Assembly (NCBI GenBank): GCA_963798915.1
Contig: CAWCVB010000006.1
Coordinates: forward strand, 64,001-128,000
DNA length: 64,000 nucleotides
Reading direction: 5' to 3'
Origin: an uncultured Gemmatimonadales bacterium
Lineage (GTDB): Bacteria > Gemmatimonadota > Gemmatimonadetes > Gemmatimonadales > GWC2-71-9
The notes under the pieces are model-generated. The model saw only the letters and a program-made list of their open reading frames with translations, searched no databases and was not told where the DNA came from. The position numbers and the translations under genes were made by a program. Position 1 is the first letter of the stretch; the number at the start of each line of letters is the position of its first letter. Positions 10,076-14,711 of the stretch are shown here, in pieces.

Positions 10076-11740
10076 ATGAACTCCAGCGCAGCCGCGACCA
10101 AGTACATCTTCGTGACGGGCGGGGTCGTCTCCTCGCTTGGCAAGGGCATCGCGGCGGCGTCGCTGGGGCGGCTCCTGGTGGAGCGCGGGCTCAGCGTGAC
10201 CATGCAGAAGTTCGACCCCTACATCAACGTTGACCCGGGCACCATGTCGCCGTTCCAGCACGGCGAAGTCTTCGTGACCGACGACGGCGCCGAGACCGAC
10301 CTCGACCTCGGCCACTATGAGCGGTTCATCGATCGCTCCCTCTCACAGCAGAACAATGTCACCACCGGCCGCATCTACCAGAATGTGATCAACAAGGAGC
10401 GGCGTGGCGAATATCTCGGCTCGACGGTGCAGGTGGTGCCGCACATCACCGACGAGATCAAGTCGGCCATCCGGCGGACCGCGCCGGGTCATGACGTGGT
10501 CATCACCGAAATTGGTGGCACCGTCGGCGATATCGAATCGTTGCCGTTTCTCGAAGCCATTCGTCAGTTCCGGCAGGAAGTGGGGCGGGACAACGCCCTG
10601 TTCGTTCACCTCACGCTGGTGCCCTTCATCGCCGCCGCCGGCGAAGTCAAGACCAAGCCGACGCAGCACTCGGTGCGGGAGCTGATGCAGATCGGGATAC
10701 AGCCGGATATCCTGGTATGTCGCAGTGAGCATGCCCTGTCGGCGGACATCCGCCGCAAGATCGCGCTGTTCTGCAACGTGGACTTCTCCTGCGTGATCGA
10801 GAGCCCGGACGTGGCCTCGATCTACGAAATCCCCTTGCGGTTCCATGACCAGCGGCTCGACGCCGTGGTCTGCGAGCGGCTGCGCCTCGACACGCCCGAA
10901 CCAGACCTTTCGCCATGGGCTGCGATGATGGAGCACGTCCTGCATCCCTCGCGCGAGGTTCGCATCGCCGTGGTCGGCAAGTACACCGACCTGCATGACG
11001 CCTACAAATCGGTGCAGGAAGCGCTCATTCACGGCGGCATTGCCCATGACGCGCGTGTTCGAATCGAGTGGGTGGCCAGCGACCGGTTTGCCGATCAGGC
11101 CGCTGCGGCGGAGGTGCTGGAAGACTTTGACGGGCTGCTGGTCCCCGGCGGGTTTGGCGAGCGCGGCGTGGAGGGCATGATCGAGGCCATCCAGTGGGCC
11201 CGGGAACACGGCCTGCCGTTCTTTGGCATCTGCCTGGGCCTGCAGGTCGCCATCATCGAATTCGCCCGCAATGTGTGCGGGCTGAAGGACGTCAACAGCA
11301 CCGAGTTCGAGCCCGACTGCCAGACGCCCGTGATTGCCCTGATGGCATCACAGCGGGAGGTCTCGGGGATGGGCGGCACGATGCGCCTTGGCGCCTACGC
11401 GGCGCGGTTGCGGCCCGGTTCGAAGGTCGCCCAGGCCTATGGTTCGACCGAGATCAGTGAGCGCCACCGGCATCGATGGGAAGTGAGCAATGCGTACCGG
11501 GATGTGCTGGCCGAGTTCGGACTGCGCCTCTCGGGCCAGTCGCCGGACGGCGGCCTGGTCGAGGTGATCGAGTTGCCCGATCATCCCTGGTTCCTTGGCT
11601 GTCAGTTCCACCCCGAACTGAAGTCCCGGCCCACGCGCCCGCATCCGCTCTTTGCCGCGTTTGTCGGCGCCGCGCTTCAGCATGGCACCGACCGGCGGGC
11701 AATACCAGGCCGGGTGGAGCTGGCCAGCAGTACGCCCTGA
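10076..11740 (+). CDS. pyrG: CTP synthase
   Basis: [53 protein letters not shown]. Confidence 0.98.
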
Positions 11741-12273
11741 TGCGGACGCTGCCGCTCGCCGCCATGCTCGGCATGGTACTGGCCTGCCACAGCGGCCCAA
11801 CCAGGCCCGGCGGTGCCTTTGCCGAGGCGGACAGCGCCGACATGCGGATGCTGAATTTCGACTACAACGTCACTCGCAACGGGATTCGGCGGAGCCGGCT
11901 GGAAGCCGACACCGCCTACTTCTACGACAGCGAGCAGACCAGCATGCTGCGGCATGTGCGGGCAACGTTCTTCAATGACATCGGCACCCCCCGGGCCACC
12001 CTTACTGCCGACGGGATGAAGTACAACCTGCGGGACGGCTCCATGCGCGCCGAGGGTCACGTGGCGCTGGTGGGACCGGCGGGAGAACGGCTGACCACCT
12101 CGGTCCTGGTCTTCGACGTGAACCGGAACACCCTGTCGAGCGACCGGCCCTTCGTGCTCCTGCGCGGTGGCGAACGGCTGCAGGGGTCGGGCTTCGATGC
12201 CGACGCCGACTTTTCTCGGTTCCAGGCCAGTCGCCTGCGCGGCGTGACGGCCGATACGGCGTTGCGCCAGTGA
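11740..12273 (+). CDS. lptC: LPS export ABC transporter periplasmic protein LptC-like
   Basis: LAC lipobox, beta-jellyroll-like pattern (LEADTA, LTAD, LQGSGFDAD), position upstream of lptA-like and lptB. Confidence 0.75.
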   Translation: MRTLPLAAMLGMVLACHSGPTRPGGAFAEADSADMRMLNFDYNVTRNGIRRSRLEADTAYFYDSEQTSMLRHVRATFFNDIGTPRATLTADGMKYNLRDGSMRAEGHVALVGPAGERLTTSVLVFDVNRNTLSSDRPFVLLRGGERLQGSGFDADADFSRFQASRLRGVTADTALRQ

Positions 12274-13556
12274 TGCGCCCGTCGCTGCAGAGGCTCGCGT
12301 TGATCGCTCTGGCGGCGGTCCTGGCGCATCCGGCCGTGGCCCAGCGTCCCGAGCGCTGCCGGGTCCAGTTCTCGACCTCGGGCACCGGTGGTTTCGTCGC
12401 GAGCCCGACCGGAGAGACGCGGTGGGCCAGCGGTGGGGTGCGGCTCGGATGCATCGGGCAGCGCGTCAGCGTCACCACGGACAGCGCGGTCGTGTACCCG
12501 GGCGGCGACGTCGATTTCGTGGGTCGGGTGCGCTACCGCGATACCACGGTGACGATCGCGGCGACCCGTGCCACGTTCCGGCGAGCCACGGAAACCTGGG
12601 AGGCGCGGGGCGACGTCACGATTCACAATCTCGAAACCGGCTCCACGGTGCGCGGCCCGGCCGTTGATTATCTCCGCGCGGCCGCTGGAGTGCGGGACAG
12701 CAGCGAGGTCTACGCGACCGGGCGCCCTCGCGTCGATTACTTCGAGGATGATTCATCAACGGCTGAGCGGGAGCCCTACCGGATTGTGGCCGACCGATTG
12801 CGTTCCCGCGGCAAGTCCCTGGTATGGGCGGGAGGCCGGGTGACCATCGACCGCAGTGACCTGGCCGCGCGCGGCGACTCCATGCGACTCGACACCGGCC
12901 CGAGTGACGATGGCTCCCTGCTTGGGGGCACACCGGAGTTTCGCGGACTCGGCGCCGACAGCTTCCTGGTCCGCGGCTCGCGCATCGATTTCACGTTCGA
13001 GCGCCGAAGCGTCTCCGGGGTGCTGGCCCAGGGCAAGGCACACGTCGAGCGCAAGGACTGGACTCTGGAGGCCGACACCATTGCGCTGGCCGTCCGCGCC
13101 CAGTCGGTCCAGCAGATCAACGCCTGGAGCCGGACCCGCCAGTCCGAAGGGGTCTCGAGCCGCTACGCCCTCCGGGGCGATTCCGTGGTCATCGAGACGC
13201 CTGATGAGCGGCTGAGCGGTCTCCGCACTTTCGGCCGCGGGTGGGTGGCGGGCGGCGTAGACTCGGCGTCCGGCGAGCGGAACTGGCTGTCCGGCGATAC
13301 CGTGCTCGCCATCTTTGCCGCGGCGGATTCCGCCGACACCTCGGCGTCCCGGCTCTCGCGGCTCGAAGCGCATCAGGATGCCCACTCGTTCCAGCACATT
13401 GCCCCTCAGCAGCGGGGCGCGCGCGCTGGATTGTCGTACGTGACGGCCGAGAACATCGTAGTGTTCATGAAGCCGGCCGGGAACGAAGAAGTCGAGCGGG
13501 TCGAGGCCACGGGCGGGGTGCAGGGCGTGCAACTCGATCCTTCGGGCGGCGGATGA
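12273..13556 (+). CDS. Long OstA/LptA-like periplasmic protein
   Basis: Signal peptide, repeated beta-strand-rich segments (ARGDV, ARGDS, LRGDS, LSGDT), lies between lptC and lptB. Confidence 0.65.
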
Positions 13557-14711
13557 GCGACACCTGGCTCGGAGCGGTAAGTCGGCGCGATCCTTCCGTT
13601 CCCCTGACACTCGCCGCCATTGTCCGTGGCTCGGGGCCCCATGGGGCGCTCGGACTGCCCGATCTCCTGATCTCGTATCGGGAGACATTCCTGCTGTGCT
13701 ATCGCGACCTGTCGCGTGGTGCGGAACCGGAGTTGTCGGGCGACGAGATTCGCGAGCATCTCTCGGGATCGCTGCTGCCACGACTGGCATCGGAAGGGTG
13801 GATCGACGACACCGCCGCGATCGACTGGGACGCGGTTCAGGCCGTGGGCGAGTGGTGGCCCGCAGTGGCGGCCGATCGCAGCGGGGCCTTCGAGGCCCTG
13901 GTCGGGATCGCCCGGGAGTGCCTGCGGGCGCCGCGGCGTACCGGTCCGGCCGGACCGGCCAGCGTGCTCGAGGGCAAGGAGCTCTCCAAGAGCTACCGCC
14001 ACCGGCGAGTGGTGGATCACGTGAACCTCCGGGTGACGCAGGGCGAGATCGTGGGCCTCCTGGGCCCCAATGGGGCCGGAAAGACCACGACGTTCTACCT
14101 GATCACCGGATTGGTGCGTCCCGAATCGGGCGAGGTGGTGCTCGACGGCGAAGCCCATCACGGGCGTGCCCATGTACCAGCGCGCACGCCTCGGGCTCGG
14201 CTATCTGGCGCAGGAACCCTCGGTCTTCCGGCGCATGACGGTCGAGGACAACATCCGCGCCATTCTTGAAGTGCGCGGATTGCAGGCCAAGGCGCGGGAA
14301 CGCGAGCTGGAGCGCGTGCTGGACGAACTGTCGATCCGGCATTTGCGGCGTGCCAAGGCCTATTCGCTCTCGGGTGGCGAGCGGCGCCGCCTGGAGATCA
14401 CGCGGGCGCTGGTGACCGAACCCAAGTTCATGCTGCTGGACGAGCCTTTCGCCGGCGTGGATCCCATCGCCGTGCACGATATCCAGACGATCGTAGCCGG
14501 GCTGCGGCTTCGCGGCATTGGCGTCCTCATTACGGACCATAACGTGGAACAGACGCTCGACATCGTGGATCGCGCATACATCATGGTGGACGGCAAGGTG
14601 CAGGCGGCCGGAACCGTGCGCGATCTGGTGTACAACGACCGGGTGGCACAACGCTATCTCGGGCCGACCCTCACGTCGCGCCTGCGGGCGCGCCTGGAGG
14701 CGGTGGCATGA
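13553..14711 (+). CDS. lptB: LPS export ABC ATPase LptB with N-terminal extension; +1 frameshift at ~14151
   Basis: First frame [19 protein letters not shown]; second frame [49 protein letters not shown]. Removing one base at 14151-14153 gives a continuous ~385 aa ORF. Confidence 0.9.

Follow-up and report, generated by a model that had tools for sequence, protein, structure and literature searches.

The analyses presented below indicate that a lineage of Gemmatimonadales has very probably lost the synthesis of lipopolysaccharide (LPS) while keeping its Lpt export machinery functional. The lineage is represented by a stretch of 64,000 nt (the window, G000:C6:64001-128000) from a metagenome-assembled genome (MAG) termed a soil-type bacterium, whose assembly comprises 3.31 Mb in 17 contigs, with a G+C content of 66% and a completeness rating of 84.8%. 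It was placed within Gemmatimonadales through the relatives of its CTP synthase, PyrG (L005-L031, L039, L063 and L075). In the window, pyrG is joined directly to the export gene lptC at the head of a pyrG-lptC-lptA-lptB-rpoN locus, without the genes for 3-deoxy-D-manno-oct-2-ulosonic acid (Kdo) synthesis that separate the two in relatives carrying the LPS genes (LPS-positive). The locus contains the following features:

10076..11740, + strand: pyrG (CTP synthase; PF06418 and PF00117); the open reading frame opens with GTG at 10052 and the likely start is ATG 10076
11738..11742, + strand: TGATG stop/start overlap of pyrG and lptC, read directly from the sequence
11740..12273, + strand: lptC (177 amino acids; TIGR04409 with 60.8 bits, family threshold 38; PF06835 at E 4.4e-7)
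12273..13556, + strand: gene for a long LptA-like periplasmic bridge protein (428 amino acids from GTG 12270), assigned by predicted fold
13553..14711, + strand: lptB (ABC ATPase) with an N-terminal extension of ~135 amino acids and a +1 frameshift; ABC_tran in two frames
14154..14156, + strand: C-run with three C where relatives imply two, the site of the lptB frameshift
14708..16195, + strand: rpoN (sigma-54; PF04552, PF04963 and PF00309), its start overlapping the lptB stop (ATGA)
16192..22403, + strand: glycosylation cluster of glycosyltransferase family 2 (GT2), GT4, LPG_synthase_TM-like, YfhO-like and GT2 genes, with overlapping junctions after rpoN

Loss of the Kdo and lipid A genes

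In the sequence at 11730-11750 (GTACGCCCTGATGCGGACGCT), the pyrG stop codon TGA occupies 11738-11740 and the lptC start codon ATG occupies 11740-11742, with one base in common, exactly as a first-pass annotation of the window had read it. The same annotation had described the lack of kdsA, kdsD and kdsC between the two genes and of kdsB upstream, and this was confirmed: no kds gene was found at the locus, and the upstream neighbour of pyrG encodes a DUF2231 membrane protein, not KdsB. The identity of pyrG itself was clear, with the CTP_synth_N (PF06418, 434.9 bits) and class-I glutamine amidotransferase GATase (PF00117, 130.4 bits) domains and 94% identity to the L005 homologue. Further overlaps were present downstream (TGATG at 12271-12275; ATGA at 13553-13556, 14708-14711 and 16192-16195). 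Since stop and start codons overlap by 1 or 4 bases at every junction from pyrG through rpoN, these genes are probably co-transcribed and, to judge from the overlaps, translationally coupled.

We compared 30 Gemmatimonadota pyrG loci. In 28 of them kdsA directly followed pyrG, the exceptions being L005 and L014, which have lptC at this position. Where the relatives' loci reached lptC, the interval between pyrG and lptC measured 1.4-2.7 kb and corresponded to kdsA with kdsC and/or kdsD; NCBIfam naming of the intervening genes in six loci identified kdsA (TIGR01362, 334-346 bits, in intact frames), kdsC (TIGR01670) and kdsD (TIGR00393). The gene directly preceding pyrG in the LPS-positive genome G046 is kdsB, and in all relatives lptC keeps its place upstream of lptA-lptB. 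Because kdsA, with kdsC and/or kdsD, separates pyrG from lptC in the relatives, the ancestral operon contained the kds genes. The gene orders give an ancestral (kdsB)-pyrG-kdsA-kdsC-kdsD-lptC-long lptA-lptB-rpoN-GT2-GT4 arrangement, of which exactly the kds genes are lost in the window. The adjacency of pyrG and lptC is a real deletion and not a chance arrangement, and the TGATG at 11738-11742 is the scar left by removal of kdsA-kdsC-kdsD.

The missing genes were not found elsewhere in the genome. Profile searches of G000 returned no LpxC, LpxB, WaaA or KdsB, and for LpxA and LpxD either nothing or only sub-cut-off matches from unrelated hexapeptide acyltransferases. The kdsA profile matched only two paralogues resembling 3-deoxy-D-arabino-heptulosonate 7-phosphate (DAHP) synthase, whose 116-118 bits fall short of the cut-off of 314. 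Similarly, tblastn of G000 with the relatives' KdsC, LpxD, LpxA, LpxB and DUF374 proteins (the lpx-cluster queries were taken from G046) gave no match, and with KdsD only a weak one of 88 amino acids (E 9e-5). G115, G183 and G066 gave the same result as G000 for the Raetz (lipid A) pathway, with lpxA, lpxC, lpxD, lpxB and waaA not found. Among the five genomes searched for lpxA, lpxD and kdsB (these four and G046), only G046 reached the cut-offs. G115 belongs to the same genus as G000, is rated 100% complete and likewise lacks kdsA and kdsB.

To place these absences, LpxC was surveyed in a sample of 201 genomes of the phylum. It was present in 193, the positive genomes including four unpublished ones (G157, G097, G182 and G057), and was not found in eight: G000, G115, G066, G172, G078, G183 and G037, all of one family, and G135, from another family of the same class. 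These eight, together with G201 (L014), G202 (L012), G203 (L005) and five LpxC-positive controls, formed a 16-genome panel. True kdsA, LpxB and WaaA were each present in the same seven genomes (G037, G001, G046, G038, G107, G142 and G202) and absent from the same nine (G000, G115, G066, G172, G078, G183, G135, G201 and G203), six of which are rated 94-100% complete. LpxC was likewise missing from G201 and G203, whereas G202 has it. G037 was rejected as an LPS-negative genome: its missing LpxC was a false negative, as kdsA, lpxB, lpxK and waaA are present, with lpxB 2.2 kb from a contig end.

When the junction was read across the panel, pyrG was followed directly by lptC in all nine LPS-negative genomes, and kdsA lay between the two genes in all six LPS-positive genomes that could be read (G046, G142, G202, G037, G038 and G107; in the last three the order was judged from the positions that kdsA and the long lptA occupy on a shared contig). 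G001 was left out of this count because its kdsA and long lptA are on different contigs. The junction thus correlates perfectly with LPS gene loss. No LPS-producing relative with the adjacency was found, all nine genomes that have it being without lpxC, lpxB, waaA and kdsA, so that the loss of kds genes coincides with that of lpx genes in every one. Neither of the two observations named in the first-pass annotation as refuting it, kds genes at another place in the genome or relatives that make LPS and have this adjacency, was made.

A second trimmed locus and the number of losses

About 32 kb from this locus, the window carries a reduced form of the bamA-skp-lpx cluster of its relatives:

46962..49334, - strand: bamA (four POTRA domains and Omp85)
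46376..47059, - strand: skp/ompH (PF03938)
45856..46311, - strand: stand-alone fabZ (PF07977 only)
44769..45809, - strand: lpxK-like open frame (346 amino acids; PF02606), followed by gdh

This is the other locus, some 30 kb away, to which the first-pass annotation had alluded, and it presents a matching deletion. The LPS-positive G046 counterpart reads bamA-skp-lpxD-lpxC/fabZ fusion-lpxA-GFO oxidoreductase-lpxB-DUF374-lpxK-gdh, and the G142 cluster is alike except for the oxidoreductase. The reduced order bamA-skp-fabZ-lpxK-like-gdh is common to G000, G115 and G183, and the short G201 locus reads fabZ-lpxK-like-gdh. FabZ of the window aligns with residues 363-505 of the LpxC/FabZ fusion of G046 at 71% identity. 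From this alignment, the window fabZ is the surviving half of an ancestral lpxC-fabZ fusion whose LpxC half was removed precisely, and the locus as a whole has lost lpxD, the LpxC domain, lpxA, the oxidoreductase, lpxB and DUF374, with fabZ kept separately. The retention of bamA, with skp, means that an outer membrane is still built. The oxidoreductase of the G046 cluster (L104 4858-5841, - strand) belongs to the GFO/IDH/MocA type and, like the DUF374 gene (L104 3120-4250, - strand), was lost with the cluster in the LPS-negative genomes.

The lpxK-like gene was retained in an altered form. LpxK-family matches occurred in eight of the nine LPS-negative genomes and were weaker than in the five LpxC-positive controls (55.6 and 38.4 bits in G000 vs ~200-230), and PF02606 scored 95 bits in the window vs 204 bits in G046. 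In the alignment, all six LPS-positive LpxK proteins keep the GNLxVGG(S/A)GKTP, GGDE and LDDA(F/Y)QRLD motifs. The P-loop, GxxGxGK(T/S), and the GGDE and DD motifs are those that we take to serve ATP binding and catalysis. In the window they are replaced by ANLTVGDSGKGP, SPWRGAA and VESDIPA; the P-loop reads GDSGKG and its Thr is lost. The G115 and G183 proteins are similarly eroded, and in the G201 protein the DD motif alone survives. Conservation is high over the first 33 residues and the C-terminal half, the former being identical between the window and G115 at an overall identity of 63%, and the ratio of nonsynonymous to synonymous substitution rates (dN/dS; pairwise Nei-Gojobori here and below) was 0.24-0.30. 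We read the protein, from its motifs, as a putatively kinase-dead form that has been retained. It could be a pseudo-enzyme; alternatively, some other constraint may act on the 5' end of the gene.

The number of losses was addressed with a PyrG+LptB+RpoN tree (28 rows and 1306 columns; L029 was left out owing to frameshifts). Seven of the family-level negatives formed one clade, with 83 in the Shimodaira-Hasegawa-like approximate likelihood ratio test (SH-aLRT); G078 fell just outside it, and G135, which also lacks lpxK, was placed far off among other families. Constraining the eight family-level negatives to one clade gave a likelihood better by 4.3, and this was not rejected by the approximately unbiased (AU) test (p 0.654). 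Most simply, the genes would have been lost once within the family, across genera g1, g21, g24 and g36, and independently in G135. Of the LPS-positive sisters, the nearest (L013, L015, L016 and L031) share 84-85% PyrG identity with the window.

Retention of the export machine

The genes for export remained. Each of the 16 genomes has an open frame for the long LptA and matches to LptF/G (PF03739), those of G000 scoring 261 and 232 bits at C10:52596-55120. The Pfam LptD model PF04453 matched none of the 16, LPS-positive genomes included; it was judged blind in this phylum and replaced as a probe by PF19838 (LptD_2), the Bacteroidota-type LptD, which was detected in eight of the nine LPS-negative genomes and in G046. 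An MsbA-like exporter scored 517 bits in G000 against a family cut-off of 602, and it was equally sub-threshold in the LPS-positive G046. The N-terminus of LptC looks like a signal or lipoprotein peptide.

The 428-residue protein encoded at the usual lptA position had no Pfam or NCBIfam match. We aligned it with 27 homologues from the equivalent position in related genomes and obtained an AlphaFold2 model, which was all-beta with a mean predicted local distance difference test (pLDDT) score of 87.5 and a predicted template modelling (pTM) score of 0.82. A Foldseek search against the PDB placed LptD chains at the top (5iv9_A, E 3.4e-6) and also returned LptA (2r1a_G; target-normalised TM-score 0.75, root mean square deviation 3.0 over 134 columns), LptH (4uu4) and LptC (6mit_C). 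Based on these matches, the protein is predicted to be an Lpt-type beta-jellyroll of about three LptA lengths.

We then determined dN/dS for the export genes. Close LPS-negative pairs gave 0.12-0.16 for LptC, 0.09-0.16 for the long LptA and 0.03-0.05 for LptB, and close LPS-positive pairs gave 0.08-0.15, 0.08-0.23 and 0.03-0.09, respectively. More divergent pairs were higher for LptC and the long LptA, reaching 0.35-0.38 among negatives and 0.42-0.48 among positives. These values are approximate, since dS was 0.41-0.65 in the least saturated pair (L014/L099) and ~0.8-1.4 in the others. The export genes are under purifying selection, with no sign of relaxation relative to the LPS-positive relatives. 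The claim of the first-pass annotation that synthesis genes are absent and export genes kept is thereby borne out, lptC, the long lptA, lptF/G and others being open frames with low dN/dS.

In the window, lptB is interrupted. ABC_tran positions 2-51 are read in one frame and positions 55-137 in another, the letters LDGEA standing in one frame and their continuation in the next; dropping one C at 14154-14156 restores a continuous LptB. The frameshift is private to the window: in G203 and G115 the two parts are in frame and ABC_tran is intact, and both halves of the window protein are 93-96% identical to these relatives. The intact frame in the closest relatives, this identity and the C-run context together indicate an assembly error. 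The frameshift would thus most likely be a sequencing or assembly error in the C-run, or else a very recent lesion. Two public read runs contained 8-9% of the sampled window words, and none of their contigs gave a near-identical match across 14154-14156. Beside lptF-lptG, a SprA-like (type IX secretion) gene is spread over four consecutive overlapping frames (L121 436-6570, - strand, corresponding to G000:C10:46435-52569); these may be further assembly frameshift errors or a broken gene, and they are a further hint at an error in lptB.

The lptB gene begins at 13553, where its ATG overlaps the lptA stop, ~400 bases ahead of the ABC domain; neither this start nor the frameshift figures in the first-pass annotation. 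The resulting in-frame N-terminal extension (13553-13960, ~135 amino acids) is 70-80% conserved in G203, G115 and G183, and 42-53% conserved both in the LPS-positive L013, L016 and L031 and in L014, L099 and L098. In distant relatives such as L007, only ~90 bp separate lptA and lptB.

Cargo, rival explanations and significance

The favoured reading is that a Gemmatimonadales lineage has lost, as a secondary event, the lipid A (Raetz) and Kdo pathways in their entirety and kept its outer membrane. Clean deletions have trimmed (kdsB)-pyrG-kdsA-kdsC-kdsD-lptC-lptA-lptB-rpoN to pyrG-lptC-lptA-lptB-rpoN and, at the second locus, removed the lpx genes likewise, leaving fabZ and a catalytically degraded lpxK-like gene. 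The trans-envelope machine that remains would consist of an MsbA-like flippase, LptB2FG, LptC, the triple-length LptA and a Bacteroidota-type LptD. ATP-driven LptB2FGC would extract an amphipathic molecule other than Kdo-lipid A from the inner membrane, and the beta-jellyroll long LptA would pass it to LptD and the outer leaflet.

Several points weigh against this reading. The window lptB is frameshifted, which taken alone would suggest decay. Several pairs have dS near or above 1, and their dN/dS ratios are rough. All genomes compared are MAGs, and the lineage is known here through gene sequences. The incomplete G000 assembly lacks whole regions of its relatives (tatC-lptD and hemB-spt-like), and no LptD was found in it with PF19838. 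As G000 is incomplete, a gene's absence from it would by itself prove little, and it is the relatives and the junctions that carry the case. Clade-specific residue shifts in the long LptA were tried as a marker of a substrate change and gave no signal either way, with no position fixed differently between LPS-negative and LPS-positive genomes (0-2 in three control clades); this fits a bridge that mainly recognises acyl chains and does not prove it. Lastly, none of the results names the cargo. The putative non-Kdo cargo proposed in the first-pass annotation gains support from the loss of synthesis alongside constrained export genes, its existence and nature both being conjectural.

The lpt genes might be functionless relics of a recent LPS loss, now decaying, in which case the +1 frameshift that splits lptB at 14154-14156 would be the first visible lesion; the lpxK-like gene illustrates that a leftover gene can stay an open frame after its catalytic motifs have eroded. 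However, lptC, the long lptA, lptB, lptF/G and lptD are open frames across a clade in which long-LptA identity is only 46-80%, and the close-pair dN/dS of 0.03-0.16 equals that of LPS-positive relatives. The two closest relatives have lptB in frame, at 93-96% identity to the window halves, and retention was repeated after the independent loss in G135. We consider decay of the export genes very unlikely. An enzymatic alternative is that non-homologous or strongly diverged enzymes continue to produce lipid A, or a molecule closely analogous to it, and that Lpt carries an LPS-like molecule. The lpxK-like frame, the MsbA-like exporter and the glycosyltransferase genes still present after rpoN would agree with it, but the models for LpxC, LpxB and WaaA found no match here and those for LpxA and LpxD only sub-threshold hexapeptide matches, these models scoring 260-330 bits in the sisters, and the lpxK-like protein is without the P-loop Thr, GGDE and DD motifs. 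We know of no replacement of the whole Raetz pathway, and this alternative seems to us scarcely probable.

It is hardly credible that incompleteness or wrong binning of the MAGs simulates the loss, with the lpx and kds genes on unassembled or unbinned contigs. Such an explanation could appeal to the 84.8% completeness of G000, which demonstrably lacks some regions, and to G037 as a proven false negative for lpxC. Against it, the deletions can be read as junctions within unbroken sequence, both at the two loci, which share a 500-kb contig, and in other, independent assemblies; nine genomes, six of them rated 94-100% complete, jointly lack as many as nine genes that are unlinked or sit at separate places; and every LPS-positive control has all of these genes.

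As to what the machine carries under the favoured reading of a lost LPS and a retained Lpt system, the candidates would be a lipid of the sphingolipid type, some other glycolipid or, by analogy with Borrelia, lipoproteins of the cell surface. A gene resembling serine palmitoyltransferase (Spt-like; best family NF047600, 493-501 bits against a cut-off of 640) was found in the LPS-negative G115, G183 and G066 and in the LPS-positive G046. It adjoins a gene for a conserved 395-residue protein, followed by a PAP2_3 gene in G115 and G183 (L122 5956-10161 in G115; also L123, L118 and L114); NCBIfam gave no name to these neighbours. The region is missing from G000. Together these genes may form a sphingolipid cluster. 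A gain of serine palmitoyltransferase specific to LPS loss was rejected, as the Spt-like gene is also present in G046. Another lead to the cargo is the glycosyltransferase/YfhO cluster after rpoN, which is conserved among LPS-positive and LPS-negative genomes alike. The surroundings of lptF, lptG and the msbA-like gene on contig C10 gave no clue to the cargo. A fuller proposal, which we put forward tentatively and rate somewhat short of an even chance, is that a Gemmatimonadales clade of at least four genera and an independent second lineage of the class have an LPS-free outer membrane, in which the original complete LptB2FGC-LptA-LptD, and not a paralogue, has been re-purposed for another outer-leaflet lipid, maybe a phosphosphingolipid from the Spt-like/PAP2_3 cluster, with the kinase-dead LpxK kept in a non-catalytic role.

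Other genes of the window touch on the surface or stand apart from it. On the + strand, the stretch from 4.8 to 22.4 kb includes, upstream of pyrG, genes for an S9 peptidase, an M28 peptidase and the DUF2231 protein. The GT2, GT4, LPG_synthase_TM-like, YfhO-like and GT2 cluster may be a surface-glycan decoration system, and GT2 and GT4 after rpoN are kept in both LPS-positive and LPS-negative relatives. A ClpC-type ATPase gene lies beside one for an ATP:guanido phosphotransferase (McsB-like) at 49385-52974 (- strand), and a homologue of the bacillithiol gene product BshC is encoded at 40680-42209 (- strand); these three features are better known from Firmicutes. A single frame at 59993-61894 (- strand) unusually joins a Clp_N domain to two Na/Ca-exchanger membrane domains.

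In Escherichia coli and other proteobacteria, the corresponding genes form a kdsD-kdsC-lptC-lptA-lptB-rpoN (yrbG-lptB) operon, and pyrG is linked to kdsA. The Kdo genes ahead of lptCAB-rpoN recall the order in LPS-positive Gemmatimonadota; the window differs in having no kds genes, an LptA of 428 vs ~185 amino acids and an LptB with the ~135-residue extension. LptF/G (YjgP/YjgQ) homologues also matched in Thermus, Deinococcus and Thermotoga, diderm control genomes without LpxC that were compared by LptF/G alone; there the lack of LPS extends across the phylum and does not go back to a recent loss inside one family. The LPS-free Borrelia burgdorferi is reported to need an LptD homologue (LptD_Bb/BB0838) for its surface lipoproteins and is predicted to have LptB2FGCAD (10.1101/2022.12.21.521298). 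On that account Borrelia and the lineage described here are both LPS-free diderms that keep a complete Lpt-type bridge; Borrelia belongs to another phylum and to an old spirochaete loss without close LPS-positive sisters, whereas in Gemmatimonadales the sisters are at ~84-85% PyrG identity and the deletions can be traced gene by gene. In Caulobacter crescentus, the paralogues LptF2, LptG2 and LptC2 are reported to move sphingolipids with LptB (10.64898/2026.04.12.717747). Lpt-family inner-membrane proteins and LptB would there carry a non-LPS lipid, and Spt-like and PAP2_3 genes occur in the Gemmatimonadales clade, with the caveat that the Spt-like match is sub-cut-off and shared with G046. 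The Caulobacter proteins, as reported, are extra paralogues beside a working LPS system, whereas here the single original set remains in a lineage without LPS synthesis.

In diderms, LPS and its export are regarded as close to universal and as essential, Lpt being an antibiotic target, and the known LPS-free diderms are mostly old, of phylum scale and without close LPS-positive relatives. No report of LPS loss in Gemmatimonadota appeared in the literature searched (supplements excluded), which is no proof that there is none; in a term search of a Gemmatimonadota ecogenomics paper (PMC10581226), lipopolysaccharide, LPS, lipid A and lpx had 0 occurrences. Lpt without LPS has precedents, and what is new here is the recency of the loss, the readable deletion scars, the apparently independent repeat and the close LPS-positive sisters. 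The loss lies inside one family, with scars in two operons and the export machine still under selection, and appears to have been repeated in a sister family. The annotation of 'LPS export' genes in a genome does not imply LPS. Paired LPS-positive and LPS-negative genomes make it possible to ask which molecule takes the place of LPS in the outer leaflet and which one Lpt transports once LPS has been lost; if Lpt has indeed been re-purposed, they would constitute the cleanest natural experiment yet on a change of Lpt cargo, because the LPS-positive sisters are so close.

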